Origin: Candidatus Uhrbacteria bacterium
GTDB lineage: Bacteria; Patescibacteriota; Patescibacteriia; UBA9934; GWF2-40-263
Reading direction: 5' to 3'
DNA: 51,529 bases
Assembly: GCA_016209325.1 (NCBI GenBank)
Contig: JACQWJ010000036.1
Span: forward strand, 1 to 51,529
The notes beneath the pieces were generated by a model. The model saw only the letters and a program-made list of their open reading frames with translations. It was not told the DNA's origin and made no database searches. How positions within the stretch are numbered: the stretch's first letter is position 1; the number at the start of each line of letters is the position of its first letter. Of the stretch, positions 1-24,857 are shown piece after piece. The translations under genes and the position numbers were made by a program.

Positions 1-93
1 ATCAAAGTATCGGATGAAGCACTCGCTGCCGTGAAGCTTGAACGGGACGCTTTTCACGGGGAGTGGAACTACAGAATTTATCCTGAAACTTGA
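1..93 (+). mobile_element. 3' end of an ISAzo13-family-like DDE transposase gene, cut by the window edge
   Basis: Frame +1 reads IKVSDEALAAVKLERDAFHGEWNYRIYPET*. The ...FHGEWNY.I.P tail matches my memory of ISAzo13-type transposase C-termini. Only 30 codons are visible. Confidence 0.45.
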
Positions 94-170
94 TTAAGTT
101 GTTTTGTTACTGTGCCTAAGGGCTAAGACAGGGCGAGCCGTCCTCCGGATTGAGCCAAATGATAATCGGG

Positions 171-941
171 TTAGAGCACCGACTCCAAGATGACGGGATA
201 CCGCTCACCACCTGCCACCACTTTTTCCAGAAACAGGCGGAGGATGCGGGAGGCGTCGGGGCTCGGGCGGAGCGCCGCGCGGAAGGCATCCTGGGTCTCC
301 TTGGGAATGCCGTAGTTCTTGCCGTAGTAGTCGATGCGGAACATCATGCCGTCCTCGTCCATTTCGGGATGGATGATCATGGCGTACAGGGGCTCGCCGG
401 GAAACGTGTAGGCCTGGATGGGGCTCCGTTCGCTTGAGACGAGATGCACCGCCCCCGCAGGCATGACTTCCAAATGGTCCTTGTGCCCGAGCTGGGCGTC
501 GAACCGGTCGGGAAGCTGTGAGAAGATCGGGCACGCGGCGGCGGCAGGCGTCTTTGAGACGAGAAACGTACCCGTCTCCTGACGCTCCAGATCATGCTTC
601 AATTCCCCACCGAGGGCGAGTGTCACGAACTGGGCACCGAAGCAGACGCCGAGCGTAGGCAGCCCGCGGCGGCGGGCTTCACGGATGAGGGTCTTTACCT
701 TCTCCGCGACCTCGGGAATGTGGCCCTGGGTCAACAGGTAATCCCCACTGCCGCCAAGCATGAGCGCATCAACGCCGTCCAACAAGGAGAAATCCAAATC
801 CGCCTCAAGGGCGTTCACAGCCCTGATTTGATCCAAGCGCATGCCGGCATGCGCGGCAAAACCTTCGACTTCGTGTTCGCACACAAGGGGATCGGGACGA
901 AATTGGAGGAGGAGGATGCGGAGGGTATCTGTAGAAGGCAT
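171..941 (-). CDS. class I glutamine amidotransferase (GuaA-like / COG0518-type GATase1)
   Basis: 256-aa ORF. Nucleophile elbow GVCFGAQ and His-Glu pair in IIHPEMD. Length is typical of a standalone GATase1. Confidence 0.8.
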   Translation of the reverse strand: MPSTDTLRILLLQFRPDPLVCEHEVEGFAAHAGMRLDQIRAVNALEADLDFSLLDGVDALMLGGSGDYLLTQGHIPEVAEKVKTLIREARRRGLPTLGVCFGAQFVTLALGGELKHDLERQETGTFLVSKTPAAAACPIFSQLPDRFDAQLGHKDHLEVMPAGAVHLVSSERSPIQAYTFPGEPLYAMIIHPEMDEDGMMFRIDYYGKNYGIPKETQDAFRAALRPSPDASRILRLFLEKVVAGGERYPVILESVL

Positions 942-965
942 AATGTTCGGTATTCAAGCTACGGC

Positions 966-994
966 ATCATACACAGGCGTTTTTGAGAAAACAA
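966..994 (-). promoter_or_regulatory. candidate sigma70-type promoter for the GATase gene
   Basis: Minus strand TTGTTT (989-994), 17 nt, TATGAT (966-971), about 24 nt upstream of the ATG at 941. It lies just downstream of the ATP-grasp-1 terminator. Confidence 0.35.
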
Positions 995-1001
995 GACTCT
1001 C

Positions 1002-1036
1002 AAAAAAAGAAAAAAGACCCAGGAGTGCTGGATCTT
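1002..1036 (-). terminator. rho-independent terminator after ATP-grasp paralog 1
   Basis: Minus-strand stem AGAUCCAG/CUGGGUCU followed by UUUUUUCUUUUUUU, 17 nt after the stop at 1053. Near-duplicate of the terminator at 2738-2771. Confidence 0.6.
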
Positions 1037-1052
1037 CGAAGAAAAAAGAACG

Positions 1053-2411
1053 TTATGAGGCGGGAGCCTCCAGTCGATGAAGAGCGGCCCAGAGGAGCTC
1101 CTCGGCTCGTGCGATGTTACTCGCGATGGCGACGAGGATGCATCCCGGTGCGTCCAGTGACAAAGCGCCGGGCTTAACGAGCAGAATCCCCTCCGTGCTA
1201 TTTGGTCCGAACACGATATCGCCATACCCGTCCGGGTGATCCGCAAGAACCCGCACGACGTCCCGCCAGTGTCGAGCCGTCGCGGGGTGGCAGGCATGCA
1301 TCACCACGCAGGGATGGGGAACCCTGCCGGAGTCAGCAACTTGAGAACGCACGCTTGCGGCGTACGTTCCCGCCGTCTTGCGCACGTTTGCCTCCAAAAA
1401 ACAGACGTGGAAGGAAGATCGACCGTCAAACGTGACGATCACGTCGAACCCGACATACCCGACGCATTGGGCCTGCCAGAGGTGTTGCGCGAACTCCTCG
1501 CTCTGTCGCCAAACCTCCTCCACGATCCGCCCCCGAACTTCTTCCGGCCAATGCGCGGGAAGAGCGTCCCATTCGTCGGTGCAGACCGCGTTGCCTTGGT
1601 GTTCCCCGGCGACTGTATACTGCTTGGAAAAGAAGATCCGCTCCATCGCATTCGGAGCCAACGGAACGTAAAGCTGACAGGAAGCCACACAGACCTCTTC
1701 TCCTTCGTCGCCCACGTGGGCTTCGATAATGAGACGACGCTCCCCGAGGAACTGTTGAAGGTATGTATCGATGACCTGTCGGAGAGTATCACGGGAGATG
1801 AGGAGGGTCCCGATCCCCGACTCCATGTCGGGCCTTTTGAGCCAGACCTTGGGGTAGCGTTCCAGGAGATCACGCAGGTGCCGACGCACCTCCTCCTCCG
1901 TCATCCCGAAGCGGTGCTCCGGGAAGCAGTGACTGAGACCGAGCGCGCCCGCTTCGATACGGAAGTATTCCTTGTCGTCGAAACGCTGTGCGATTTGGTA
2001 CCAGTCATCATACGTTGGAGTTCTCAGCTTGTGCCTGGGAGGGTCGATTATCCTGATGCAATCCTTCCAGGCCAAGCTGGCACCCGTAAATGTCTCGAAC
2101 GTCGCCCCATTTGCGAGCTGGGAACGAAGCCATGCACATTCTGCCGGATCATTTACGATCGCGTCGAGGATTGAACAATCCCGCGCATCTACGACCCGAA
2201 GTCCCCTTACGCCGATTCCGCTCGGAAGCAGGTGTTCCTGATGGTACTCACGCAGACTCGCGGCGTTATCATCCGAACCATCCACGTAAGCGATGGTGTC
2301 TTTACCTTCTAGCAAGGTACGTTGGGCATACACCGCGACTCCTGGAATGTGCCCCTTAAGCACGTGTTGATAATGAAAGAGACAATCGGCAACGATGCGA
2401 GCTCCAAACAT
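1053..2411 (-). CDS. ATP-grasp superfamily ligase, paralog 1 (carboxylate-amine/peptide ligase type)
   Basis: 452 aa. KRPDMESGIG (nucleotide-binding strand-loop) and FLEANVRKTAGTY (E-x-N Mg/ATP motif). Alignable along its length with ORF 2795-4171. GGAGG SD 5 nt upstream of the ATG. Confidence 0.65.
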   Translation of the reverse strand: MFGARIVADCLFHYQHVLKGHIPGVAVYAQRTLLEGKDTIAYVDGSDDNAASLREYHQEHLLPSGIGVRGLRVVDARDCSILDAIVNDPAECAWLRSQLANGATFETFTGASLAWKDCIRIIDPPRHKLRTPTYDDWYQIAQRFDDKEYFRIEAGALGLSHCFPEHRFGMTEEEVRRHLRDLLERYPKVWLKRPDMESGIGTLLISRDTLRQVIDTYLQQFLGERRLIIEAHVGDEGEEVCVASCQLYVPLAPNAMERIFFSKQYTVAGEHQGNAVCTDEWDALPAHWPEEVRGRIVEEVWRQSEEFAQHLWQAQCVGYVGFDVIVTFDGRSSFHVCFLEANVRKTAGTYAASVRSQVADSGRVPHPCVVMHACHPATARHWRDVVRVLADHPDGYGDIVFGPNSTEGILLVKPGALSLDAPGCILVAIASNIARAEELLWAALHRLEAPAS

Positions 2412-2533
2412 GACAGCCTCCGGTTGTGGCGTGGGTGATATGTTCGATTGGACGAGAACGGTCGGTCCTCCCGGATTGGAGGACCGGGAACGGCGCGAAG
2501 GATTCGCGCGATTCCTGGGTGTCCAAGGGTCGG

Positions 2534-2570
2534 AAGAAAAATGAAAGCCGCCGGTTTTTACCGGCGGCTT
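2534..2570 (-). terminator. hairpin plus U-tract inside the leader of ATP-grasp 1 (attenuator or terminator)
   Basis: Minus strand AAGCCGCCGG-uaaaa-CCGGCGGCUU followed by UCAUUUUUCUUCC, about 134 nt upstream of the start at 2411. Confidence 0.5.
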
Positions 2571-2599
2571 GATCTGTGGGGCTTGTGACGCGAGGCGTG

Positions 2600-2683
2600 C
2601 TACAAACGACCAAATCTTACCACCGGGAGGTCCAGTAGGCTAAGAAGGCCGAGAAGGTTGTTTGAACGAAAGTCGCGGTGCAT
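2600..2683 (-). CDS. mini-ORF P1 (27 aa, MHRDFRSNNLLGLLSLLDLPVVRFGRL); coding status uncertain
   Basis: ATG lies 9 nt after the predicted -10 box and has no SD (would be leaderless). Same position as the mini-ORFs in the other two cassettes. Could equally be non-coding leader RNA. Confidence 0.2.
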   Translation of the reverse strand: MHRDFRSNNLLGLLSLLDLPVVRFGRL

Positions 2684-2692
2684 ATCGATTCG

Positions 2693-2721
2693 AGCGTAGC
2701 AAACCGCATGGAAAAGGTCAA
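2693..2721 (-). promoter_or_regulatory. candidate extended -10 promoter of cassette 1
   Basis: Minus strand TTGACC, 17 nt, (TGc)TACGCT. Same TGnTACGyT box as at 4462 and 6840. Confidence 0.45.
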
Positions 2722-2737
2722 ACGACGCAATTTGGAT

Positions 2738-2771
2738 AAAAATGAAAAAAGACCCAGAAAGACTGGATCTT
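2738..2771 (-). terminator. rho-independent terminator after ATP-grasp paralog 2
   Basis: Minus-strand stem AGAUCCAG/CUGGGUCU plus UUUUUUCAUUUUU, 24 nt after the stop at 2795. Confidence 0.6.
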
Positions 2772-2794
2772 GAAGTCGAAAAAAGGACGTGGCG

Positions 2795-4171
2795 TCAGCA
2801 GCCTGCCTCGAGGCGAGCGGCGGCGGCGTTCATGAGTCGTTCGGCCTCTTCCGGAGTGGAAGCAACCGACATGACGATGCACTTGGGATGACCCTGCTTC
2901 CGAAGAAGCCTCGGATTCAGGACAAGGACGCCGCGATGTTCTCGATTCATCGCCAGGTCCCCAAACCCGTCTCGATCGCTCTCGGAACCCAAAAGACTGA
3001 CCGCCTTCTCCCAGTGATCGATTCCGGAATGTGGATGACAGTTCCTCATGGCGACGCAGGGCTTCAGCGTATGACCGAACTGTTGCACCTGCCAGCGGAC
3101 GCTTTCCGGATACGTCCCGGCGGTTTTGCGCGCGTTGGCCTCTAACAGAAAGAACTGGAACGAGAGACCATCGGAATTCAGTGCCGTGATAAAATCAAAC
3201 CCGATATGCCCGACGTACCCACGCTCCTGTGCGTCTCTGACGAACGTCTCGGTGGTGTGCCATGCCGTCTGGGTGATTGCCTGGCGGGTGGAGTAGTCCC
3301 ATGTCGCGGGAAACGCGTCCGCCTCGTCATGCGGAATCATATTCCCCTGGTGAATCGTGCCGTCGCAGTACTGGCGGCTCAAAAAGCGCCGTTGGGGTTT
3401 CTTGCCGGGCGGAGGAACATACCATTGGACCGAACCGACCGCCTTTTCCTCGCCGTCGATCCACCGCTCAACGATGAGATTTCGCGATCCTTGGGCGTAC
3501 TTGCGAAGGAAGGGAAGAAGACCGGCCCAGGAACGAGTGTCGTGCAGGACATGGAATCCCACGCCGCTTTCCAGGTCAGGCCTCTTGACCACAATTCGGG
3601 GATGACGGAGGCGGAGACGGAGGCAGTCCCAGATAGTTCCCTGAATTCCATGGGAAAAGGTATGCGCAGGAAAGACGTCGCTCCTGCCGATCTGACGGGA
3701 CAGACGACGAAATCCCTCCTTGTCATGCAGTGTTTTGGCCACATCCCACGGCGCCGTACGGATACGTTCCGAAGGAATCTGGAGTTCGGCAAGAAGACGC
3801 CCCCATCCTGGAGAAGCTCCGGTAAACGTCTCAAGAGTGGCGTCCAGGTCGAAAAAAAGTTCTCTGTACAGACGATCACGATGCTCGGGATCGGAGAGAA
3901 TCCCGTCGAAGAGGTTTCCGGACCCCTCGACGAATCTGAGCTCTTTGGCGCCCAGGCCGAACGCCCGCAGATACCGGTGATGGTCACTCATGTATTGAAG
4001 ATGAGGACCTCCCTGAAGGTAGACTGCGCCGTAAGGCAGAACTTCTGCCCGATCGGGATACAGCTCGATCCCGTCAATCTCCCCAATATGGAGGCCGTCC
4101 GCATTGGGGGTCGTGAAAACACTCATGTCGTCGATGGCCCTTCTGTGAAGGGTGGGGAATACGTTTCGCAT
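2795..4171 (-). CDS. ATP-grasp superfamily ligase, paralog 2
   Basis: KRPDLESGVG and LLEANARKTAGTY. Shares ETFTGAS and the C-terminal ...RLEA with paralog 1. Start trimmed to ATG 4171 (MRNVF...), which has GGAGAG 4 nt upstream. The track ORF extends to a GTG at 4339. Confidence 0.65.
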   Translation of the reverse strand: MRNVFPTLHRRAIDDMSVFTTPNADGLHIGEIDGIELYPDRAEVLPYGAVYLQGGPHLQYMSDHHRYLRAFGLGAKELRFVEGSGNLFDGILSDPEHRDRLYRELFFDLDATLETFTGASPGWGRLLAELQIPSERIRTAPWDVAKTLHDKEGFRRLSRQIGRSDVFPAHTFSHGIQGTIWDCLRLRLRHPRIVVKRPDLESGVGFHVLHDTRSWAGLLPFLRKYAQGSRNLIVERWIDGEEKAVGSVQWYVPPPGKKPQRRFLSRQYCDGTIHQGNMIPHDEADAFPATWDYSTRQAITQTAWHTTETFVRDAQERGYVGHIGFDFITALNSDGLSFQFFLLEANARKTAGTYPESVRWQVQQFGHTLKPCVAMRNCHPHSGIDHWEKAVSLLGSESDRDGFGDLAMNREHRGVLVLNPRLLRKQGHPKCIVMSVASTPEEAERLMNAAAARLEAGC

Positions 4172-4286
4172 CTTACTCTCCGAGTGGGGGTGAAACGAAT
4201 CACGTGGACAGGAAGGCGACTCCAACAGGTGAAGCCGCCTTCCGTCCCCGCGAAAATGGACCAGCAATGAAAGGAACGGATCGAAA

Positions 4287-4315
4287 GAGCCGTCGGACCA
4301 GGGTCCGGCGGCTCT
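4287..4315 (-). terminator. 13-bp hairpin in the leader of ATP-grasp 2 (attenuator or terminator)
   Basis: Minus strand GAGCCGCCGGACC-cug-GGUCCGACGGCUC (one mismatch) followed by UUUCGAUCCGUUCCUUUCAUU. Lies between the mini-ORF stop (4339) and the start at 4171. Confidence 0.45.
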
Positions 4316-4338
4316 CGTTGTATCTGCGCTTATGAGCA

Positions 4339-4449
4339 CTAGAACATCGTCGAGGCCACCGGAGTGCCAAGAATGACAAGCATAATGACGATCATGTCGA
4401 CATTACGGCTCACCAGCTTCTTGTGCATTCCAGTGGTTGCGGAGAACAT
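4339..4449 (-). CDS. mini-ORF P2 (36 aa, MFSATTGMHKKLVSRNVDMIVIMLVILGTPVASTMF); hydrophobic, coding status uncertain
   Basis: ATG lies 12 nt after the predicted -10 box. One predicted TM-like stretch. Same cassette position as P1 and P3. Confidence 0.25.
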   Translation of the reverse strand: MFSATTGMHKKLVSRNVDMIVIMLVILGTPVASTMF

Positions 4450-4461
4450 AGTGCTATTTAA

Positions 4462-4490
4462 AACGTAACATGGGGTATGTGGAGCGTCAA
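4462..4490 (-). promoter_or_regulatory. candidate extended -10 promoter of cassette 2
   Basis: Minus strand TTGACG, 17 nt, (TGt)TACGTT. Confidence 0.45.
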
Positions 4491-4554
4491 GAATCGACGG
4501 GGAAAAGGGGAAGCAAGAGGTGTAAGGGGCGTAGGGGGACGGTTGGGGATTCAA

Positions 4555-4650
4555 ATGTCGAATCTGGCATGCCTACTGGCAGGCAGGCGAATAGGCGAAT
4601 GTGGGTTGGGTGGGACAAGGGGTAAGATCCTTCCCGAGGCGGTCAGGATG
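4555..4650 (+). repeat. partial copy (A) of the GGCGAATAGGCGAATGTGG palindromic repeat family
   Basis: GGCGAATAGGCGAATGTGGGTTGGGTGG (4586-4613) is identical to 5243-5270. Flanked by the CTGGCAGGCAGG motif. Confidence 0.6.
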
Positions 4651-4679
4651 GTGGATTGCTTTGGGTTGTAAAAAGGATG

Positions 4680-4904
4680 TTAGGAAAGATGAACTTGCAG
4701 GACTTCCAAAGACACTCCGATGTCATCCAGGATACCTCGAAGGGTACCAAGAGGGATTTCTTTTGAGTGCATCGGAATGACGGCCATACGGCCGTCGGTG
4801 TGGCGGTAAATCGCATGGCTTCCGCGTTGCCTGACCAATGCAAAACCGAGACACTGAAGCGCGGATGCCAGCTGTCTCGGCTTGATGAGCGGTGGCTTAG
4901 GCAC
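4680..4904 (-). CDS. hicA: type II toxin HicA (mRNA interferase)
   Basis: (V)PKPPLIKPRQLASALQCLGFALVRQRGSHAIYRH... is a classic HicA N-terminus with the GSH motif. GTG start at 4904 overlaps the hicB stop by 8 nt. Confidence 0.8.
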   Translation of the reverse strand: MPKPPLIKPRQLASALQCLGFALVRQRGSHAIYRHTDGRMAVIPMHSKEIPLGTLRGILDDIGVSLEVLQVHLS

Positions 4905-5151
4905 GCTTCTTTGCGGGGACGCGGGGCCGTTCCATGGATACGGTGTGGAACGTCTCGAAGCTTTCGTCACGGGGGATGGCGTCCCCCCGGTCGTTCAAGA
5001 CTTCCAAGTAGAGCTCCATGGCTTCCTGGACATGGACGCGCGCCTGCGTAATGGTCTTGCCAACGGTATGGCAACCAGGCAGGGCTGGGACGTAGGCATG
5101 AAAGTGCTTGCCGTCCGGCTCGATGATAACGCGGTAGGTGTATTGATTCAT
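4897..5151 (-). CDS. hicB: type II antitoxin HicB (UPF0150 family)
   Basis: MNQYTYRVIIEPDGKHFHAYVPALPGCHTVGKTITQARVHVQEAMELYLE... is the hallmark HicB fold sequence. Only the last 84 codons of the 271-aa track ORF are plausible. Confidence 0.8.
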   Translation of the reverse strand: MNQYTYRVIIEPDGKHFHAYVPALPGCHTVGKTITQARVHVQEAMELYLEVLNDRGDAIPRDESFETFHTVSMERPRVPAKKRA

Positions 5152-5210
5152 AAAAAATACTGGAATGCAAGTAAAACGTATCACACCCACGAGCCTATTA
5201 AAAGGACGCG

Positions 5211-5372
5211 TGAGCGATTGGGGGTCCGAATGGCGAATCGTGGCGAATAGGCGAATGTGGGTTGGGTGGTTGGATTTTGTTGTAGAGAGGGGTAACCCCT
5301 CCTTAGTCCTCCCCTCAGGCGAGGGGAGGAAATACGATTCCAGATTCGTCATTTGCTTCCAGGCAGTTTTTG
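5211..5372 (+). repeat. full MITE-like copy (B) of the palindromic repeat family
   Basis: Left arm is CGAAT-rich (GAATGGCGAATCGTGGCGAATAGGCGAATGTGG). Central hairpins are GAGGGGtaaCCCCTC and CCTCCCCTCaggcGAGGGGAGG. Right arm is ACGATTCCAGATTCGTCATTTGCTTCCAGGCAGTTT. Confidence 0.65.
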
Positions 5373-5404
5373 GGAAAAAGAAAAAGAGGGTGGAAGACAC
5401 CCTC
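5372..5404 (-). terminator. rho-independent terminator after ATP-grasp paralog 3
   Basis: Minus-strand stem GAGGGUG/CACCCUC overlaps the stop codon and is followed by UUUUUCUUUUUCCC. Confidence 0.55.
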
Positions 5405-6602
5405 AGGAGAGTCGGAGCTTGCGCTCCTCGACTCGTGAGACGAGATCGAGAAGCTTGGTTGTGGTCGGGGCGATGGCCACCCCGTAGGAGAAGCCCCTGC
5501 CCGGAGCCGTCTCGACCTTGGGAAGGAAGCAGAAGGGGACGAACCCCCAGCCTTCCCCGCGACGGAACAGGAGGTCGCGGAAGTGGCCTTCGAGGTCGTG
5601 GATCGTCGCGCCGGTCGGCACGGCGAAGCTCCGCATGTCGAAAGCGAAGCGAGCACTTTTTCCGCCGTACCAGGTCTGCAGCGCTTCGAGGGCGTAGGAG
5701 GCGGCGGTCCACCTCGCGTTGACTTCGAGAGCCCAGACGAGCGACTTGAAGAGATCACAGAGGAAATCGACGGAACCTCTGCCGAAATATCCAATATCCT
5801 TCAGGCGAACGACAATCCGTCGCGTGATCTCCCGCATCTTGAGTCGGAGACGGATCGGGAGTTCCGGAGCGCCGTCCAGTCCGACTCCTGCGGGACGCCA
5901 GTTCCCGCAGTGCGTTTTATGGTCTTTAACATGTTGGCGCGTAACGGGACCGATCGCGACCCGGCCGTTCTGGTCGATCGAGAACTGGACACTCGCGTCG
6001 ACCAACGCGTCTCCCCCGATGTCCGTCTGAACAACGTAGGAGTCTGGCGGAAGGTCCAGTATGGGATCTCCCGGTTGGAGAACCCATTGATATAGACCAC
6101 TCGCGGAGTCGGCCGCCTTGATCCGAGGAACCCCTCCCTTCTCACGGATGCGCGCCACGGCGGCCGGAACATCGTCCCGAGTCTGGCACACGATTCCGTA
6201 AGGGAGGCAGTTGTCCGGATCGTTACCGAAGGCCTTCTGAAAGAAAACCTTGCTGTTTACCATGAGCGAAAACTCCCGCACGGGGCAACGCAATCGACAA
6301 CTGACACCGGCAGCATCTCGATGAAGGGACACGGACGTTCCGGAAAACGGATCGATTTCCCTTCCCTCGAGACCCGTCAAGCTGTTCCGCACGTTCGCGA
6401 CGGGCGTAGGCCCGATGCCCAAGCGATTCAGAAGGAGCACTTCGTCCTGAACAGAACCCTGCGGTTCTTCCACGACGACGATGTCGTTAGCGTCCGCGCA
6501 CAAGAGCGCGCGGCGATCGAATTGACTAAGAAGCTCAAGGCTGAACGCCGTGTGACGGATAACATCTTTCGTTCTGTGACAGTAGACACGTTGTCGACTC
6601 AT
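5403..6602 (-). CDS. ATP-grasp superfamily ligase, divergent paralog 3
   Basis: 399 aa. RIKAADSASGLY and ALEVNARWTAASY (E-x-N motif, same context as paralogs 1 and 2). GGGGAGG SD 7 nt upstream. Confidence 0.55.
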   Translation of the reverse strand: MSRQRVYCHRTKDVIRHTAFSLELLSQFDRRALLCADANDIVVVEEPQGSVQDEVLLLNRLGIGPTPVANVRNSLTGLEGREIDPFSGTSVSLHRDAAGVSCRLRCPVREFSLMVNSKVFFQKAFGNDPDNCLPYGIVCQTRDDVPAAVARIREKGGVPRIKAADSASGLYQWVLQPGDPILDLPPDSYVVQTDIGGDALVDASVQFSIDQNGRVAIGPVTRQHVKDHKTHCGNWRPAGVGLDGAPELPIRLRLKMREITRRIVVRLKDIGYFGRGSVDFLCDLFKSLVWALEVNARWTAASYALEALQTWYGGKSARFAFDMRSFAVPTGATIHDLEGHFRDLLFRRGEGWGFVPFCFLPKVETAPGRGFSYGVAIAPTTTKLLDLVSRVEERKLRLS

Positions 6603-6685
6603 CGGAAACCTCCCCGATTATTGGGTTGTAGGGAAATGTTTGTCTCGTCTCAGAGATGTGGGAGCAAAACTCGCCACACCTCACT

Positions 6686-6726
6686 CAAAAAGACAAAACC
6701 AAACGGCCGCCCTTCCGGGCGGCCGT
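6686..6726 (-). terminator. hairpin plus U-tract in the leader of ATP-grasp 3 (may also terminate dnaE)
   Basis: Minus strand ACGGCCGCCC-ggaa-GGGCGGCCGU followed by UUGGUUUUGUCUUUUU. Confidence 0.6.
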
Positions 6727-6754
6727 GCTTTGCTTGCGTATTCCTTACGCCTGC

Positions 6755-6826
6755 TCAACGACGAAACCACCCGGCTTGGGGAAAGCCGAAGGTAAACAGG
6801 GGAAAGATGAAATTCTGCGTCGTCAT
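6755..6826 (-). CDS. mini-ORF P3 (23 aa, MTTQNFIFPLFTFGFPQAGWFRR); coding status uncertain
   Basis: ATG lies 13 nt after the predicted -10 box. The start and stop codons sit in opposite arms of a long-range helix. Confidence 0.2.
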   Translation of the reverse strand: MTTQNFIFPLFTFGFPQAGWFRR

Positions 6827-6839
6827 ACGAGCAGGGGTG

Positions 6840-6867
6840 AGCGTAGCATGTTGGCTGAAACTGTCAA
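6840..6867 (-). promoter_or_regulatory. candidate extended -10 promoter of cassette 3
   Basis: Minus strand TTGACA, 16 nt, (TGc)TACGCT. Confidence 0.45.
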
Positions 6868-6870
6868 TCG

Positions 6871-6985
6871 TTGAGAGCGATTGGGGGGCCGAAAAACGAA
6901 TCATGGCGAATAGGCGAATGTGGATTGGGGTGGTTGGGAAGGTGTGACCCCTCCTTAGTTCTCCCCTCGGGGGAGGGGAGGAAAA
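6871..6985 (+). repeat. copy (C) of the palindromic repeat family
   Basis: TGAGAGCGATTGGGGGG...GGCGAATAGGCGAATGTGG...CCCCTCCTTAGTTCTCCCCTCGGGGGAGGGGAGG. Ends 5 nt from the dnaE stop codon. Confidence 0.65.
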
Positions 6986-6990
6986 CAACT

Positions 6991-9900
6991 TCATCCCTTC
7001 ACCCACCGCACATGCTGGCGGCCGACGAGGGAGGCCAAGGCGTCGAGGAAGGCGTCGGAGACGGCGACGGCGTAGTCGGTCTGGACGCGGCGGGGCTTGC
7101 CCTGGGACTCAAGGATGAAGCAGACCCGCTCGGGACCGGGGGCGGAGGTGAAAAGCGAGCGGAGCTGCTCCACGAGGTCGTGCGCGGGCTTGCCAACGAG
7201 GACGATCTCGAGCCCGAGCAGCGGAGGCGCTGACGCGGGAACTGCGGCGGACGGCAGGGGAGCCGAGGGTGACCCGGCGGCCGCATCCGGGGGCGTGGCA
7301 GGCGGGACGGAAGCGGCGTGCGCCGGCGGAGGCGTGGGATCGGCGGGCGCGGACGCGGCCTGGCCGCCCCCGTCCATCCTCAGCCATGCGAGGGCCTGGT
7401 CCACATTGTCCTCGTCGACGAGGAGGAAGTAGTTGGCGAGAAGCTTCGGTTCCTCGCCCTCGCGGCGGGAGACCTTGGCCCCCACGATGACCACACGCTC
7501 GGGCAGGAGGAAATCCTGGGAGGAGAGGAAGACCTTGGGGAAGCACACCACCTCGGTCTTCGTCCGGCCGTCCTCAAGTTCGACGAAGGCCATACTGTCG
7601 CCCTTCTTCGTGACGATCTTCTTGACCGAGCTTACGAGGCCCCCGCAGCGGACGACCGCCCCCTCGGGAGAGGCGACGGCGTCGGCAAGGGAGATGACGA
7701 AGGACGCGAGGCGAGGCGCGACGGCGTGGTAGGGGTGGGCGCTGACGTACAAGCCGAGGACTTCCTTCTCCCACCCGAGGAGCTCGCCGCGCTTGGCCGC
7801 CGCCGAGGCCGGGCGCAGGCGGAGCTTCTCCTGGACAAGGGCCGGGGCGAGGTCGAAGAGCGACGACTGGTTCTGGGAGGACTGCTGCTGGGCCTGACGG
7901 TTGAAGAGGAGGATCTGGTCTACGTTGTCGAGAAGTTGGCGGCGCTCGCCGAAGCGGTCGAGGGCCCCGGACTTCGCGAGCGCCTCGAGCGACTTCTTGT
8001 TGAACGCGCGGTGATGGACGCGCTCGGCGAAGTCCGTCAGGTCGATAAACGGGCCGCGGGCCTCGCGCTCGGCGATAATCGCCTGAATGACTTCTTCCCC
8101 CAGGTTCTTAATGACGAGCAGGCCGAAACGGATCGTCTGGTCGTCGATGTAGGTGAAGGTGGAAAGGGACTCGTTCACGTCGGGCGGCAGCACCTTGATC
8201 CCCAGCCGCTCACACTCCTTGACCGCATCGGCCACCGTGTCGAGGTCGCCGGACTCGGCGGTCATGAGGGCCGACATGTACTCGGCGGGGTAATTCGCCT
8301 TCAAGTACGCCGTGTAATAGGCGATCATGCCGTAGCTCGCGGCGTGGGCCTTTCCGAAGCCATACGCAGCGAATGGTTCGATCAGCTTCCAGAGTTCCTT
8401 TGACTTCGACGCGGACAATCCGCCCGCGACCAACCCATCGATCAGCTTGTCCTTCTGTTTCTGCATTTCCTCCGGGATCTTCTTTCCCATCGCTTTGCGT
8501 AACTTGTCCGCCTCGAGCCATGAGTACCCGGCCATCTTGATCGCGATGAACATCACGTCTTCCTGGTACACGATCACGCCATACGATGATTCCAAAAACT
8601 CCTTCATCCGCGGGTCGAGGTAGCTCACGAGGGACGGGTCGTGCTTCCTCCGGATGTACTCGGGGATCGACTCGATCGGGCCCGGGCGGTAGAGGGCGAC
8701 CATGGCCATGATGTCCTCGATGCGCTCAGGACGGAGCTCCATGAGGTACTTCGTCATGCCGTCGCCGTTTAACTGGAACGTACCCATGGTGTAGCCCTTC
8801 GCGAGGAGCTCAAACGTCTTCGGATCGTCGACGGGAATCCGCTCGAGGTCGATGTCGAGATCCTTGATGTGCTTCAGGATCTTCACCGCGTCCCCGAGAA
8901 TCGAGAGGTTCCGGATCCCGAGGAAGTCCATTTTGAGGAGGCCCGCAGCTTCCACGGACTTCATCTCATACTGGGTGATGACCTTCCCTTCCTTGGTTTC
9001 CACCTGGAGGGGCGTGAACTCGGTCAGGGGCTCGGGAGAGATGACGACGCCGGCGGCGTGGATCGAGACGTGGCGGGCGCAGCCCTCGATGCGGCGCGCG
9101 AGATCTATGAGGCGCTTCACCTGGGGGTCGGCGTCGTACTGCTTCTTCAGGTCCTCCGCCTCCTCGAGCGCACGCTCGAGAGTCATGGGAAATCCCTGGC
9201 TGCCCATCGGGACCAACTTCGCGATCTGGTCGACAAAGCCGTAGGGGATGCCGAGCGCGCGGCCGACGTCACGGATGCTCCCGCGCGCCATCATGGTCCC
9301 GAACGTACAGATCTGGGCCACCTTATCCTTGCCGTATTTCTCGGTGACGTAGGCCAGCATCTCGTCGCGGCGGTTGTCGGCGAAGTCCGCGTCAACGTCC
9401 GGGGCCGAGGGGCGCTCAGGGTTCAGAAAGCGCTCGAAGGGGAGCTTGTAGCGGAGGGGATCCACGCTCGAGATGCCGATCGCGTAGCTGACAAGCGAGC
9501 CGGCGGCCGATCCGCGGGTGGTGGTCACAATACCGTTCTTCCGGGCCCACTCGATGTAGTCGGAGACGATCAAAAAGTAGGGGGCGAACCCCTTTACCTC
9601 GATGACGGAAAGCTCGTAGTCAATGCGCTGCCGCATCTCCTCGGTGAGCTCAGGGACCTTGCGGGCAAGTTCGGCATACGCCCGCTGACGCAGGTACTCC
9701 AAGTGGGTCAGCCCATCAGGCACTTCGAAGTGGGCGAAGTTCCATTTTCCAAGCTCGAACGTGACGTTGCAGCGGTCGGCGATGACGCGGGTATTCTCGA
9801 TCGCTTCCGGAACGTCCTTGAACTGCTCTTCCATCTCCTGCGGCGAAACGAATGAGGCATCGTAGTCATATGCCTGCAGGCGCTCGAACTGTTCCAAGGT

Positions 9901-10629
9901 CTTCCCTCCCTGCACGCACTGAAGAATCTTCCAGGCCTCGGCCTCGTCGGGCTTCAGGTAGAAGGCGTTCTTGGTCGCGACGACGGGCACGCCGAGCTCC
10001 TTCCCAAGCTCGATCAGCTGCGCGTTCACGGCCGCCTGCTCGGGAATCTCGGGGCGGTCGACAAGCTCAAGGTAGAAGTTTCCCTCGCCGAAAATCTGGC
10101 GGTACTCGCCGATGAGCGCGACTGCGTGCTCGCGGTTCCCCATCTGGAGGGCCTGGTCGATGTCGCCGAAACGTCCGCCCGACAAGGCGATGAGGCCGTG
10201 GGACTTCCCAAGACAAAACTCCCGCAGGAGCTCTTTGTCGATGCGTGGCTTGTAGTAGAAGCCCTCGAGAAATCCGAGGGACGAAAGGCGGACGAGGGTA
10301 CGATACCCGTCGTTGTTCTCCGCGAGGAGCACCAGGCGGTTCGGCTTCGTGTCGATGCGCGCGCGCTTCTGGTGCCGCCCAGCCGGAGCCACATAGGCGT
10401 CCATGCCGACAATGAGCTTCACACCCTCGTCCTGCGCCTTCTGGTAGGCCTCGATGACCCCGTACAGCGTGCCGTTGTCGGTGAGGGCAAAGGTGTCCAT
10501 CCCCTTCTCCTTGGTCGCCTTAATAAGCGCCTTCACCTTGGGAAGCGCCTCGAGCAACGAGTAGTGACTATGGACATGCAGGTGGACAAAGCGACTGAAA
10601 GGCATAGGAAAAGGGGGAAAAGAGACCAC
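6991..10629 (-). CDS. dnaE: DNA polymerase III alpha subunit
   Basis: PHP motif HLHVHSHYSLLEA at the N-terminus and the usual DnaE core along the length. Start is either GTG 10629 or ATG 10605. Has an unusual P/A-rich linker and extra C-terminal module. Confidence 0.93.
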   Translation of the reverse strand: MVSFPPFPMPFSRFVHLHVHSHYSLLEALPKVKALIKATKEKGMDTFALTDNGTLYGVIEAYQKAQDEGVKLIVGMDAYVAPAGRHQKRARIDTKPNRLVLLAENNDGYRTLVRLSSLGFLEGFYYKPRIDKELLREFCLGKSHGLIALSGGRFGDIDQALQMGNREHAVALIGEYRQIFGEGNFYLELVDRPEIPEQAAVNAQLIELGKELGVPVVATKNAFYLKPDEAEAWKILQCVQGGKTLEQFERLQAYDYDASFVSPQEMEEQFKDVPEAIENTRVIADRCNVTFELGKWNFAHFEVPDGLTHLEYLRQRAYAELARKVPELTEEMRQRIDYELSVIEVKGFAPYFLIVSDYIEWARKNGIVTTTRGSAAGSLVSYAIGISSVDPLRYKLPFERFLNPERPSAPDVDADFADNRRDEMLAYVTEKYGKDKVAQICTFGTMMARGSIRDVGRALGIPYGFVDQIAKLVPMGSQGFPMTLERALEEAEDLKKQYDADPQVKRLIDLARRIEGCARHVSIHAAGVVISPEPLTEFTPLQVETKEGKVITQYEMKSVEAAGLLKMDFLGIRNLSILGDAVKILKHIKDLDIDLERIPVDDPKTFELLAKGYTMGTFQLNGDGMTKYLMELRPERIEDIMAMVALYRPGPIESIPEYIRRKHDPSLVSYLDPRMKEFLESSYGVIVYQEDVMFIAIKMAGYSWLEADKLRKAMGKKIPEEMQKQKDKLIDGLVAGGLSASKSKELWKLIEPFAAYGFGKAHAASYGMIAYYTAYLKANYPAEYMSALMTAESGDLDTVADAVKECERLGIKVLPPDVNESLSTFTYIDDQTIRFGLLVIKNLGEEVIQAIIAEREARGPFIDLTDFAERVHHRAFNKKSLEALAKSGALDRFGERRQLLDNVDQILLFNRQAQQQSSQNQSSLFDLAPALVQEKLRLRPASAAAKRGELLGWEKEVLGLYVSAHPYHAVAPRLASFVISLADAVASPEGAVVRCGGLVSSVKKIVTKKGDSMAFVELEDGRTKTEVVCFPKVFLSSQDFLLPERVVIVGAKVSRREGEEPKLLANYFLLVDEDNVDQALAWLRMDGGGQAASAPADPTPPPAHAASVPPATPPDAAAGSPSAPLPSAAVPASAPPLLGLEIVLVGKPAHDLVEQLRSLFTSAPGPERVCFILESQGKPRRVQTDYAVAVSDAFLDALASLVGRQHVRWVKG

Positions 10630-10650
10630 GGCGGATCTCTTTTTTGCTTC

Positions 10651-10953
10651 CTAGGATACTTTGTCTTCCACATCGCCGGACTTGTGGTCGCGCTTCTTCT
10701 CGACCGCGTACTCGACCACCCGCTTGACGCCCTCGGCCAGGATGCCGATGCCGGAGGTGGCCTTCTCGAAGCGGCCCTTGATGGAGGTGAGGGCTTCCTC
10801 GATGCGGCCGATCTTCTCGCGGGCGTCGGCCATGGTCTCGTTGACGTTCTTCAGGATCATGGCGATCTGCCAGATGAGCCAGCAGACGAAGGCGGTGAAC
10901 CAGAGCGCGCAGAAGGCGAGGACGATGAAGAGGATATCTTTTGATTCGAACAT
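10651..10953 (-). CDS. small N-terminally anchored coiled-coil membrane protein (DUF948-like?)
   Basis: 100 aa. One TM (ILFIVLAFCALWFTAFVCWLIW) followed by a helical, charged segment. Confidence 0.5.
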   Translation of the reverse strand: MFESKDILFIVLAFCALWFTAFVCWLIWQIAMILKNVNETMADAREKIGRIEEALTSIKGRFEKATSGIGILAEGVKRVVEYAVEKKRDHKSGDVEDKVS

Positions 10954-10957
10954 ACAG

Positions 10958-11489
10958 AGAGACGATTGAGGAGCGAATTACGAATCCGGACGAATATGCG
11001 AATGTGGACGGATTTCCCCTCCTTCCCTAAGGAGGGGACTAAGGGGAGGTCACTTCTTACAAGCGTTTCCAATGGCTTCCAAGACTCCCTCCAAGTTATC
11101 AAAAACATCACGATTGGAAAACCGAATGACTTGGAGACCGACGGAGGCGAGGTACTCCGACCGACGCTGGTCATACGCTTCGGCCTCTGGCGTCCCGTGC
11201 GCATTTCCGTCAAGCTCTACGACCACTCTCGTTGCAGGACAGTAAAATCAACGATGTAGGGACCGATGCCTTGCTGACGACGGAATTTATATCCCATCTG
11301 CTTACCCTTCAGATGATTCCAAAGAACGACCTCGGCAGGAGTCATTTCATTTCTCAACGCGCGACGCCGGGAAAGGTTAATCGGATCGTTGAAGAGGACT
11401 CCCATAGGTGTGACCTCCCCTTAATCCCCTCCTTGAGGAAGGAGGGGAGATATGACCATGTTCGGCATTCGGACCCCCAATCGCTCTCA
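10958..11489. mobile_element. DUF559 endonuclease gene bracketed by inverted copies (D, E) of the palindromic repeat
   Basis: Inner ends: CCCCTCCTTCCCTAAGGAGGGGACTAAGGGGAGGTCA (11016-11052) versus the reverse complement of 11411-11447, CCCCTCCTTCCTCAAGGAGGGGATTAAGGGGAGGTCA. The outer arms are CGAAT-rich on both sides. Confidence 0.6.
11050..11405 (-). pseudogene. DUF559 (Vsr-like) endonuclease-domain gene with a -1 frameshift in a T-run
   Basis: Frame A: ...ALRNEMTPAEVVLWNHLKGKQMGYKFRRQQGIGPYIVDF. After the run at 11244-11247 (4 T where 5 would keep frame) the other frame reads PATRVVVELDGNAHGTPEAEAYDQRRSEYLASVGLQVIRFSNRDVF...*. Could be a homopolymer assembly error. Confidence 0.7.
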
Positions 11490-21897: not shown

Positions 21898-22959
21898 ATG
21901 GAGGCTGCCAATCCGACATACTCGTCCCTGCCCGCGCGCAGGCCCGCTCCCCCGCCGTCTCCCCGCTCCCTGTCGGAGGCGGGAGCGCAGACGCACGCGC
22001 GGATCGCGGCCAAGGGCCTGGAAACCGAATCGGCATGGGTCGGTCGTCTACGGCACGCCACGGCCCAAGAGCGGCTGACGAAGCCGTCTCCGGCGGCATC
22101 GGTCCCTGCTTCCCCGCGCGGCCTGCGCGGAGTGGCGAGCCAGGCGTTCACCCAACGGATGGCCGCGGTGCCGGACGGCGTTCCCGTCGAAGGACAGCGG
22201 CAGCTGCAGGAGAACGTGCTGCGTGAGCGCCTCCAGGCCAGCCGGCTGACGACCCAAAAACATCCCCCTCTCTCCCCCTTGTCATTCAATCCGGCTGCGG
22301 CCAACGCCAACTTGGGACGTATCCGGGCCGCGCGAAAAAACCCGGAGACCACTCCCGAAGACGCGGAACTTCTGGAAGAGGCAGAAGCGTCACCCGAGCA
22401 GGGGATCGCGCGCCAGCTGGCCTTTCGCCTGTCCCTCCGGCGCCAGCAGCAGATGGACCGCATGCGCGCCCTAACGGGGCAAAGCGAGGAGGACAAGGCG
22501 AAAGCCGAGCTGCAAAAACAGGTACGCAAAGCCGCCAAGGCGGCCATTCGGCGCGGCGTCCAGTATCTCTTCACCTCGATCGCGAACGTCCTCACGGTCG
22601 GAACCGCCGGAGTCGCGATCGTCGTCACAATTTTCATCTACGCCTTTTCGCTTCTCGACCTCAACATCCAGATGATTTGGGGGTATTATATTACCAAGAA
22701 AAAAAGCCTGTTCTTCCCGCCCCTCGAATGGGCCCCCCTACCCATCCCGCTGCCTGACATCGTTCTGCACGCGCTCGTGGTGTTCGTCGACATCGCTCTC
22801 TTTCTGGGACTGATGGCGGTCGGTATCAGTATGTTCATCATGCTGTTCGGACCCATGCTTGCCGCACTCCTCGGACCGGCAGCTGCCCTCACGCTGTTTA
22901 CCAATCCAGCCTTCCTGAATATCATGTCGAACGTGGCGGCAAACGTCATTGCATTCTAA
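21898..22959 (+). CDS. membrane protein: P/A/R-rich N-terminal half, multi-TM C-terminal half
   Basis: The C-terminal 130 aa form 3-4 hydrophobic helices (VGTAGVAIVVTIFIYAF..., VVFVDIALFLGLMAVGISMFIMLF...). The N-terminal boundary is uncertain. Confidence 0.5.
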   Translation: MEAANPTYSSLPARRPAPPPSPRSLSEAGAQTHARIAAKGLETESAWVGRLRHATAQERLTKPSPAASVPASPRGLRGVASQAFTQRMAAVPDGVPVEGQRQLQENVLRERLQASRLTTQKHPPLSPLSFNPAAANANLGRIRAARKNPETTPEDAELLEEAEASPEQGIARQLAFRLSLRRQQQMDRMRALTGQSEEDKAKAELQKQVRKAAKAAIRRGVQYLFTSIANVLTVGTAGVAIVVTIFIYAFSLLDLNIQMIWGYYITKKKSLFFPPLEWAPLPIPLPDIVLHALVVFVDIALFLGLMAVGISMFIMLFGPMLAALLGPAAALTLFTNPAFLNIMSNVAANVIAF

Positions 22960-22966
22960 CGCGAGT

Positions 22967-24194: not shown

Positions 24195-24857
24195 ATGCAA
24201 CACCGCTGGCTTACCCTCTTTAGCATCGGATTTTTGGCGGTCATCGTCTTCGCGCTGTTCTTTTTGCGCCTCCAGCCCGTACGACCCCGCTTCGCGCAAA
24301 CCGCGCAGCCGACGGAAACGGCCGTGACAACGGAACCAAGTGTGCATGTCCGGAATCCGGCCAAAGGAGCGAAGGAACCGCGCGTGACGCTGGTGGAATT
24401 CGGCGACTTCCAGTGCATGCCCTGCAAGGACATGGCCGAATCCATCGACGTACTCCTCAGAACGATTCCCGAAGTTCGCATGGTCTGGAAAAATATGCCA
24501 AACGAGTCTGCCCACCCGCTCGCGACCCCAACGGCAATCGCAGCCCACTGCGCGGCGGACCAGGGAAAATTCTGGGACTACCACGATGCCCTGTATGCAC
24601 AACAAGCCACACTGTCGGAATCTCTCTTCCCTTCTCTCGCAAAAGAACTGGGGCTCGATATGAAACGGTTTGAACAGTGCTACGCCAACCGCGACCCGCT
24701 TCCCTTGATCAAGAAAGACTTTGAAGAAGCCTTGGCTCTCCAACTGAGCGCGACGCCGACCATCTTCATCGGCGAGGAACGCATCGTTGGACTTGCGTCC
24801 GCGGAGGAACTCATAACCGCAGTGCGCCAGGTACTCGCTTCACAGCCCGCCTTATGA
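24195..24857 (+). CDS. membrane-anchored DsbA-family thioredoxin-fold oxidoreductase
   Basis: N-terminal TM. Active site FGDFQCMPCK (CxxC). Thioredoxin-like C-terminus ...PTIFIGEERIVG. Confidence 0.8.
   Translation: MQHRWLTLFSIGFLAVIVFALFFLRLQPVRPRFAQTAQPTETAVTTEPSVHVRNPAKGAKEPRVTLVEFGDFQCMPCKDMAESIDVLLRTIPEVRMVWKNMPNESAHPLATPTAIAAHCAADQGKFWDYHDALYAQQATLSESLFPSLAKELGLDMKRFEQCYANRDPLPLIKKDFEEALALQLSATPTIFIGEERIVGLASAEELITAVRQVLASQPAL

Follow-up and report, generated by a model that had tools for sequence, protein, structure and literature searches.

Three genes for predicted ATP-grasp ligases and one for an enzyme of the glutamine amidotransferase (GATase1) fold lie in the first 7 kb of JACQWJ010000036.1, a contig of 51,529 nucleotides (nt) from a Candidatus Uhrbacteria bacterium that was analysed at its full length and is called the window below. 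By sequence comparison and structure prediction, the ligases (P1, P2 and P3) fall into the PGM1/BesA structural class of ATP-grasp carboxylate-amine ligases, where they appear to represent two new, unannotated families of an otherwise known kind of amide ligase. The analysis supports the predicted fold, the presence of the catalytic residues, the relationship among the paralogs and the conservation of the gene neighbourhood. From the comparison with related loci, the module appears to be a conserved, unannotated feature of Patescibacteria (mainly Candidatus Uhrbacteria), neither a one-off arrangement nor a known pathway. Our tentative reading is that it encodes a small peptide ligase/hydrolase system, probably of the gamma-glutamyl type.

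The genes of the cluster are the following (lengths in amino acids, aa):
6991-10629, minus strand: dnaE, next to P3
5403-6602, minus strand: P3, ATP-grasp ligase of 399 aa; a second, anciently diverged family with the layout N-domain, ATP-grasp, C-domain
2795-4171, minus strand: P2, ATP-grasp carboxylate-amine ligase of 458 aa, ortholog of the relatives' single-copy gene
1053-2411, minus strand: P1, ATP-grasp carboxylate-amine ligase of 452 aa, a divergent extra copy of the P2-type family
171-941, minus strand: stand-alone GATase1-fold, peptidase C26-like enzyme of 256 aa, with Cys100-His191-Glu193

The maximal open reading frame (ORF) of P2 is 2795-4339, open up to a GTG at 4339. The start is most likely the ATG at 4171, given a GGAGAG 8 nt before it and orthologs whose N-termini align at this position. 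The P1 start codon is preceded by GGAGG at 6 nt and that of P3 by GGGGAGG. An initial annotation, made from the letters of this DNA, had placed three ligase genes and a GATase1 gene here, and four minus-strand ORFs were indeed found. Every motif that it quoted was located: KRPDMESGIG/KRPDLESGVG, ETFTGAS, LEANVRKTAGTY/LEANARKTAGTY and a C-terminal RLEA in P1 and P2, and LEVNARWTAASY in P3. The description of the ligase genes as tandem was too simple, because a HicAB gene pair and repeat copies intervene between P3 and P2 (see below). A scan of the 51.5-kb window with family hidden Markov models (HMMs) revealed no further member of the ligase families and no second GATase. The locus is also present in the samples SRR121133xx-SRR121134xx.

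The ligase families and their fold

P1 and P2 align throughout, as had been claimed, with 35% identity over 446 aa (BLASTP, E 8e-70), and they are recent-to-intermediate paralogs. The claim that P3 is also a paralog holds in the sense of homology, but the relationship is not a close one: BLASTP matches P3 to P2 at E 5e-4 and to P1 not significantly. The P1/P2-family HMM finds P3 at E 2.8e-23, and hhalign aligns the P3-family and P1/P2-family profiles along almost their entire length, in 359 columns (99.9% probability, E 3e-34). On these profile comparisons P3 is an unambiguous homolog and a deep, ancient paralog, with the three-part architecture of P1 and P2. It is 42-47% identical to proteins of Uhrbacteria and other Patescibacteria.

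Relatives of these genes lie in related loci on other contigs, labelled L005, L007, L016 and so on. P2 is about 51% identical to the L005 and L007 genes (E 1e-153 to 1e-157), matches the family HMM at E 6.5e-145, and in a neighbour-joining tree forms a clade with orthologs of the L005/L007 type in 179 of 200 bootstraps. P1 is 36% identical to the same relatives and branches outside the clade of P2 and its orthologs; P1 and P2 were sisters in 0 of the 200 bootstraps, which rules out a recent tandem duplication of P2 as the origin of P1. By this phylogeny P2 is the ortholog of the single-copy gene of related Patescibacteria. P1, which retains all catalytic residues, is a lineage-specific extra copy within the module, either an old or acquired paralog or else a fast-evolving copy.

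Neither P1 nor P2 has a Pfam match, even at E 0.1, or an NCBIfam match, and P3 has sub-threshold matches only, to CPSase_L_D2 in Pfam (E 0.055) and to PRK06524 in NCBIfam (E 0.0012, 17 bits against a cutoff of 684). A word-indexed homolog search with P1 returned P1 alone, and single-sequence searches of the PDB with P1 and P3 returned nothing meaningful. When a P1+P2 profile was run with HMMER against 1.84 billion representative proteins, just 102 were found at E<=1e-3 and 50 at E<=1e-10, arguing that the P1/P2 family is rare. It amounts to about 100 representative clusters at 50% identity in this collection, and the P3 type to a dozen clusters at 90% identity. Even the 41 aligned P1/P2 relatives match Pfam only weakly: ATP-grasp_3 in 11 of the 41, YheCD in 4, PGM1_C in 2 (best 2.6e-5) and PreAtp-grasp in 1 (1.5e-3). 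P1 and P2 themselves do not reach the PGM1-like models of Pfam (PreAtp-grasp, PF18604, and PGM1_C, PF18105).

The assignment to the ATP-grasp enzymes comes from conserved residues, from a structural model and from profile searches. In P1, residues K192, E230, D323, E340, N342 and R344 are invariant or at least 90% conserved in the 41 relatives, and all are common to P2; in the P3 family, K162, D279, N295 and R297 are invariant and LEVNAR is present. Other invariant residues of the P1/P2 family are Y28, R31, K147, R151, S244, Q264, H271 and N274. The residues that bind the nucleotide and Mg2+ in ATP-grasp enzymes (the Lys of V-x-K, a hinge Glu or Gln, and the Asp together with E-x-N-x-R) are accounted for in this way. 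An AlphaFold2 model of P1 built from the 41-sequence alignment, the only input that gave a usable model, has a predicted local distance difference test score (pLDDT) of 94.4 and a predicted template-modelling score (pTM) of 0.93; the single-sequence model (pLDDT 42) was unusable. When this model was compared with the PDB by Foldseek, there were 493 matches at E<=1e-3, and all of the top ones listed are ATP-grasp enzymes. BesA (8YI6) comes first (E 1.1e-21, template-modelling score (TM) 0.70), with a Streptomyces ATP-grasp peptide ligase (8YND/8YNQ, about 3e-21) and PGM1 (3WVQ/3WVR, E 6e-19 to 1e-18, TM 0.65-0.72) following, and PurK, LdmS and PurT are clearly behind (about 1e-14, TM about 0.5). 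The fold is extended from the P1 model to P2 by their 35% identity and to P3 by the hhalign result.

Profile searches of the PDB lead to a similar set of enzymes. The P1/P2 family profile matches PGM1 (3WVQ, 4e-18), 8YND (8e-18), PurD (4.5e-12), LdmS (1.6e-11) and BesA (5.5e-6), and its match to PGM1 includes a stretch (PGM1 residues 287-430) that is C-terminal to the ATP-grasp core. The P3 family profile matches the ATP-grasp domains of the large chain of carbamoyl-phosphate synthetase (CPS, 2e-12) and LdmS (1.6e-8). The guess of the initial annotation that the ligases resemble PGM1 or L-amino-acid ligases is therefore supported twice, by the profiles (PGM1 and 8YND first) and by Foldseek (BesA, 8YND and PGM1).

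These same searches bear on the idea that the ligases are simply divergent ATP-grasp enzymes of primary metabolism (PurD, PurK, PurT, CPS, Ddl or RimK). PurD is the next-best profile match after the peptide ligases, CPS is the best match for P3, and the module often has NDK beside it in relatives. However, no NCBIfam or Pfam model was matched by the ligases, including the NCBIfam equivalogs for PurK, PurT, PurD, Ddl, RimK and CPS, and the similarity is limited to the shared ATP-grasp core. In the Foldseek comparison PurK and PurT are about seven orders of magnitude behind BesA, 8YND and PGM1, with lower TM, and no other gene of purine or pyrimidine pathways lies nearby. The best match that the initial annotation had named as fatal to its proposal (PurK, PurT, Ddl, RimK or the like) did not appear: peptide ligases rank first. 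An identity as PurD, PurK or CPS was rejected on the NCBIfam and Foldseek results, and we regard a primary-metabolism origin of this kind as extremely improbable.

The GATase1-fold enzyme and the neighbourhood of the module

The GATase1 protein that the initial annotation had seen beside the ligases is confirmed by two Pfam families above their cutoffs, GATase (PF00117, 4.7e-11, 43.1 bits, cutoff 22.8) and Peptidase_C26 (PF07722, 1.9e-7, 31.5 bits, cutoff 20.5). Cys100, His191 and Glu193 are invariant in 25 relatives, and the motifs GVCFGAQ and HPE are present. The best NCBIfam match, full length (9e-38) and below the cutoff, is PRK07567, an uncharacterised stand-alone family. About 30 clusters of this GATase were found, a rarity similar to that of the P2-type ligase family, and the window protein is 65% identical to the product of the gene found 3' of the ligase in Uhrbacteria loci. 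The family profile scores best in the PDB on the GuaA glutaminase subunit A (E 4.6e-29), over the core only (residues 75-194), and it runs near end-to-end on stand-alone proteins: TM1158, 3L7N, 3M3P and plant GGP1 (residues 28-226, E 6.5e-21). The full-length matches are stand-alone proteins of the COG0518 type, of which GGP1 is the sole characterised one in the match list. An ammonia-donating subunit and a gamma-glutamyl hydrolase have the same S1 pocket and are not separable by sequence alone.

The census of related neighbourhoods was small (5 loci from a genome scan and 6 from a metagenome scan, mostly already known). Those homologs of P3, P2 and the GATase that carry an organism name come from metagenome-assembled genomes (MAGs) labelled Candidatus Uhrbacteria or 'Patescibacteria group', with the exception of one MAG labelled Gammaproteobacteria and one labelled 'bacterium'. 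The module is assigned to Patescibacteria, which fits the reduced genome, because of these names rather than a marker-gene phylogeny. A P2-type ligase followed by an orthologous GATase occurs in the window, in L005/6, L007/8, L009, L013, L015, L016 and L017, and in a JGI contig. The full order is an unknown protein of about 375 aa, P3-type, P2-type and GATase in L005/6, L007/8 and the JGI contig; NDK, in some cases an unknown gene, P2-type and GATase in L009, L015 and L017; and GCS2, a 69-aa ORF, P2-type and GATase in L016. In L025 a P3-type gene is followed by a P2-type gene. The ligase-GATase pair is found in three contexts, namely the ComEC-MBL-NDK block, the dnaE side (the window) and GCS2, and its survival in such different surroundings speaks for a functional connection and not just for synteny that was inherited.

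As judged from these sequences, the ancestral module would have consisted of a P3-type ligase, a P2-type ligase and the stand-alone Cys-His-Glu enzyme of the GATase1 fold, to which this genome appears to have added a divergent second P2-type copy (P1), the HicAB pair and short repeats. The initial annotation had considered such a gene set unusual in a reduced genome. The syntenic feature recurs in Uhrbacteria/Patescibacteria and is not peculiar to this genome; only P1 is lineage-specific. The pathway that was proposed for the ligases together with the GATase is still plausible, and the conserved adjacency strengthens it.

Between NDK and the module, several relatives carry a gene for a family of about 375-395 aa (L005 6162-7286, L007 6579-7718, L010 5292-6449, L011 5240-6427 and L015 4512-5633). 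The family is absent from this window and has no sequence match in Pfam or the PDB.

Other relatives replace parts of the module. In L010 (7082-7861), L011 (6887-7861) and L012 (6563-7312), a gene of the glutamate racemase type (Asp_Glu_race, 5e-15) with an N-terminal GIFDSGMGGLTV motif stands in for the P3-type gene immediately upstream of the P2-type ligase, from which it is separated by 4 nt in L012. Downstream of the ligase, L011 and L012 have a GNAT acetyltransferase, and L010 and L011 a gene for a protein similar to glutamine-dependent NAD synthetase (NadE). In L016, the pair of ligase and GATase is preceded by the GCS2 gene and by a weak glutaredoxin-like protein. In L019, a MAG contig, the region downstream of ComEC-NDK (6001-12883) contains a P3-type ligase, GCS2 (Glu-Cys-ligase-like), gamma-glutamyltransferase (GGT), a distant P2-type ligase (family HMM E 2.9e-19) and a PepT-like M20 peptidase; the GGT lies above the NCBIfam equivalog cutoff (376 against 358 bits), and the hydrolases (GGT and M20) occupy the place of the GATase. 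This row of genes resembles a complete cluster for the synthesis and degradation of a gamma-glutamyl peptide. From such loci it appears that the ligases recur beside gamma-glutamyl-type ligases and enzymes that cleave gamma-glutamyl or peptide bonds, and that the GATase is replaceable by such hydrolases.

From this evidence we infer what the ligases act on, in which order they do so and that the GATase serves as a hydrolase. Based on the fold and on the conserved Lys, Glu, Asp and Glu-x-Asn-x-Arg residues, each ligase would bind Mg-ATP, phosphorylate the carboxylate of its substrate to an acyl-phosphate and couple this to an amine, generating an amide or peptide bond. The ligases could act in sequence to make a small di- or tripeptide-like metabolite with a gamma-glutamyl or similar amide bond, and the GATase1-fold protein would then be the matching gamma-glutamyl or amide hydrolase (peptidase C26, GGP1-like) that trims or turns over the product. 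The overall logic would be the glutathione-like one of ligases plus a gamma-glutamyl-cleaving enzyme. The gamma-glutamyl part is suggested because BesA, a gamma-glutamyl ligase, tops the structure matches and because the ligases of L019 and L016 adjoin genes of the GCS2, GGT and PepT-like types. Hydrolysis is suggested because the GATase shows full-length kinship with stand-alone proteins of the GGP1 type. Separate enzymes are favoured over an obligate complex because terminator-like hairpins part the ligase and GATase genes in most loci read (see below), and an operon of ligase and hydrolase is plausible because there is precedent among the nearest relatives, LdmS being encoded with the M20 peptidase HmrA (PMC9486568).

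Several observations weigh against this reading. BesA is weaker than PGM1 and PurD by sequence profile, and the GATase is closest by score to true ammonia-donating subunits (GuaA subunit A). No GATase is adjacent to the ligase in L010-12, L018 and the P0033 contig, and part of the ligase-GATase adjacency may be inherited synteny, the NDK-ComEC block being widely conserved. The gamma-glutamyl theme is drawn from two distant loci (L019 and L016) and the top structural match. Finally, the minimal module of one ligase and one GATase (L009, L015 and L017) is simpler as a two-subunit amidotransferase.

That last point leads to the main alternative, a two-subunit glutamine-dependent amidoligase, which we consider only somewhat less likely than the reading above. 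In such an enzyme the P2-type protein would be the acyl-phosphate synthetase subunit and the GATase1 protein the glutaminase that delivers ammonia, converting a carboxylate to a carboxamide, and P3 and P1 would either supply the substrate or amidate additional sites. In function the enzyme would resemble MurT/GatD or the amidation step of NAGGN (N-acetylglutaminylglutamine amide) synthesis, and in architecture CarA/CarB. Several genomes have a minimal module that consists of the conserved pair of ligase and GATase, the two families are of similarly narrow distribution, and the GATase, with its triad intact, scores best on ammonia-donating GuaA subunits. There is also a precedent for ATP-grasp plus GATase1 in CPS, whose ATP-grasp domains are the best PDB sequence matches of P3. 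However, the two genes are parted by terminator-like hairpins in most loci, the ligase occurs in some lineages with no GATase next to it, and the GATase position in L019 is held by hydrolases (GGT and M20) rather than by another ammonia donor. In addition, the nearest structural relatives (BesA, 8YND, PGM1 and LdmS) all use the amines of amino acids or peptides and not ammonia (LdmS: PMC9486568).

It is somewhat more doubtful that P2-type and GATase1 proteins form a new, Patescibacteria-specific two-subunit amidoligase that acts on a carboxylate of the cell envelope or of a small peptide, filling the role of MurT/GatD with another scaffold. To our knowledge it would be the second partnership of ATP-grasp and GATase1, CPS being the first. 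On a par with this stands a variant in which the ligases may make a lineage-specific, glutathione-like gamma-glutamyl peptide, replacing GshA/GshB.

The racemase-type gene raises a further alternative, which overlaps with the amidoligase and which we judge unlikely: that the P2-type ligase adds or amidates D-Glu (or another residue) on a peptidoglycan precursor, by analogy with the ATP-grasp D-Asp ligase or MurT/GatD. In one Uhrbacteria lineage the racemase-type gene is directly upstream of the ligase, 4 nt away in L012. L007/8, L009 and the JGI contig have MurA (EPSP_synthase family) at a distance of 1-4 kb downstream, and UDP-glucose dehydrogenase lies upstream. However, these neighbours are housekeeping genes of a widely syntenic block in small genomes, so that their proximity is possibly inherited, and no Mur-ligase or Fem-type partner accompanies the ligase. 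The window copy, moved beside dnaE and away from those genes, kept the GATase only.

Whichever of these products is made, the module is of interest because of where it is found. Patescibacteria (the Candidate Phyla Radiation, CPR) are thought to have lost most biosynthesis. The conservation of the module across Uhrbacteria-like lineages despite this loss, together with its absence from Pfam and NCBIfam, suggests a lineage-specific product: two or three ATP-consuming amide-bond ligases and a Cys-His-Glu amidohydrolase would serve a small molecule or a modification of the envelope for which these symbionts still depend on their own synthesis. Candidates are a gamma-glutamyl peptide, a low-molecular-weight thiol, an osmolyte or a peptidoglycan decoration. 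Nothing relevant on a system of ATP-grasp plus GATase in CPR/Patescibacteria came up in searches of the literature. The analysis gives a predicted fold and chemistry to two families of 'hypothetical protein', and the four proteins, small and soluble, are suited to in vitro work; ligases of the PGM1/BesA class are also of biocatalytic interest.

HicAB, repeats, spacers and other features of the window

The spaces between and around the four genes contain the following features:
6875-6984, plus strand: full copy of a repeat of about 110 nt, between dnaE and P3
5386-5404, minus strand: terminator-like hairpin and T-run, at the end of P3
5212-5332, plus strand: full copy of the same repeat, between P3 and HicB
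4897-5151, minus strand: HicB antitoxin, 84 aa (Pfam HicB_lk_antitox, 5.1e-10, 40 bits, cutoff 27)
within 4680-4970, minus strand: HicA toxin ORF (Pfam HicA_toxin, 3.6e-16, 59.4 bits, cutoff 27)
4556-4610, plus strand: partial copy of the repeat, not part of the ligase system
2749-2771, minus strand: terminator-like hairpin and T-run, after P2
2412-2794, minus strand: P2-P1 spacer of 383 nt, with an extra strong terminator-like hairpin (2545-2570) and a 37-aa mini-ORF (2617-2730)
1013-1037, minus strand: terminator-like hairpin and T-run, between P1 and the GATase gene

The HicA and HicB ORFs overlap, the true HicA start being probably downstream of 4970, and the adjacent pair has the organization of a HicAB toxin-antitoxin system. 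HicAB is an inserted pair and not part of the ligase system; it is absent from the matching P3-type/P2-type spacer of relatives. A gene caller extended HicB to 151 aa through the repeat on another assembly, probably an artefact. The direct repeat of about 110 nt occurs at three sites only in the 51.5-kb window, on both sides of P3 and of HicAB, and contains a hairpin (CCTCCCCTC...GAGGGGAGG) with a sequence like AAGGAGG beside it on the minus strand. The repeat may be a trace of the insertion or rearrangement by which the module came to lie beside dnaE. The initial annotation had seen a remnant of an insertion sequence here, which was not borne out: no spacer ORF matches a transposase family, the repeats are direct copies and not insertion sequence ends, and the genes that lie between are HicA and HicB. 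A PADLOC search for defence systems had no match.

Each of the three ligase genes closes with its own hairpin and T-run, and those after P1 and P2 have a 34-nt repeat (D3) in common. Most loci read, L005, L010, L011, L015 and L018 among them, have a comparable hairpin and T-run 3' of the homologous ligase gene. In the P2-P1 spacer, the RNA fold of 2535-2750 is better than that of shuffled sequences (z = -3.2). An Rfam scan of 1-7200, including this spacer, gave nothing beyond chance-level matches, and no similar sequence is present in the corresponding spacers of relatives. Positions 2545-2750 could possibly contain a small RNA or mini-gene that is unique to this genome.

A further reading is a ligation in the style of PGM1 onto a ribosomal peptide from a nearby mini-ORF (for example 2617-2730), or a graspetide-like modification. 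PGM1 is among the top matches of the ligases, and the spacer has its own terminator, a 37-aa ORF and a better fold than shuffles. However, the mini-ORF has no recognisable ribosome-binding site, the spacer exists in this genome alone, P1 being the extra copy, and in 10 compared loci neither a mini-ORF nor a spacer sequence upstream of the ligase genes shows conservation. A graspetide precursor, or a precursor of any ribosomally synthesised and post-translationally modified peptide, was rejected for this lack of conservation, and the adjacent mini-ORF peptides, which the initial annotation had proposed for ligase assays, find no support as substrates. We consider ligation onto a ribosomal peptide very unlikely.

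Three other regions of the window deserve mention. The minus-strand ORF at 32037-33476 (479 aa) is an unusual fusion of a cyclodipeptide synthase domain (Pfam CDPS, 3.2e-29, residues 14-203) to a periplasmic solute-binding domain (SBP_bac_3, 1.3e-19, residues 247-470), a second peptide-bond-forming enzyme in an apparently reduced genome. The plus-strand ORF at 40994-41968 (324 aa), between a gene for a treble-clef zinc-finger protein (39558-40256) and one for an amino-acid permease, matches HMUDK_hel, the helical domain of 5-hydroxymethyldeoxyuridine (5-hmdU) DNA kinase, at 5.9e-110. Genes of this kind belong to thymidine hypermodification systems, described mainly in phages. Three consecutive plus-strand ORFs between clpC and radA (21898-22959, 22949-24193 and 24854-26143; 353, 414 and 429 aa) have no Pfam match at E 1e-5.

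Comparison with known systems

The pheganomycin peptide ligase PGM1 (3WVQ/3WVR) and 8YND are the best profile matches of the window ligases (4e-18 and 8e-18). They are also close in structure (Foldseek 1e-18 to 3e-21, TM 0.64-0.75) and in length (about 430-450 aa), and have a similar E-x-N-x-R-x-T/S motif. However, they are only 14-17% identical to the window ligases. Unlike the PGM1 system, the module has no conserved precursor-peptide gene and no natural-product cluster; the partner here is an enzyme of the GATase1 fold, and the host is a reduced Patescibacteria genome rather than Streptomyces.

BesA (L-propargylglycine--L-glutamate ligase, 8YI6) is the top structural match, and as an enzyme that forms gamma-glutamyl bonds it fits a partner that cleaves them. 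It is 17% identical, the profile match is weaker (5.5e-6), and no other genes of the Bes pathway are present. LdmS of S. aureus (7R8P/7R8Q) is an L-amino-acid ligase that is matched by both P1/P2 (1.6e-11) and P3 (1.6e-8). It ligates L-Asp to L-Met and is encoded with the peptidase HmrA, again a pairing of ligase and hydrolase (PMC9486568). The similarity is low outside the core, and its partner is an M20 peptidase, not a GATase1-fold protein, although an M20 peptidase is found in L019.

For the GATase, the closest characterised counterpart by overall extent is GGP1 (peptidase family C26, PDB 9K7I), which has a near full-length profile match and falls in the same length class. GGP1 cleaves the gamma-glutamyl bond of glutathione with the triad C100/H192/E194, to be compared with C100/H191/E193 in the window protein (PMC12958103). 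The window protein also has a conserved Arg and conserved Tyr residues after the catalytic Glu, in the region that holds R206 and Y212 of GGP1, a correspondence by position only. The two differ in that GGP1 comes from plants and acts on glutathione and its conjugates, whereas the bacterial GATase scores higher on GuaA glutaminase subunits over the core.

At the level of whole pathways, CarA/CarB and MurT/GatD each pair a GATase1 subunit with an ATP-dependent enzyme that forms an acyl-phosphate, and MurT has the Mur-ligase fold, not the ATP-grasp fold. The module resembles CarA/CarB in that the best PDB sequence matches of P3 are the ATP-grasp domains of CPS. It differs in having no CarA-type docking domain and no match to a CPS or MurT model, and its genes are parted by terminator-like hairpins. 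Glutathione is made by GshA/GCS and the ATP-grasp enzyme GshB and turned over by GGT and a dipeptidase. The window ligases match no GshA/GshB model, and there is no indication that a thiol is involved. The likeness lies in the logic, two sequential ATP-dependent ligases plus a gamma-glutamyl-cleaving enzyme, and related loci carry GCS2, GGT and a PepT-like peptidase.

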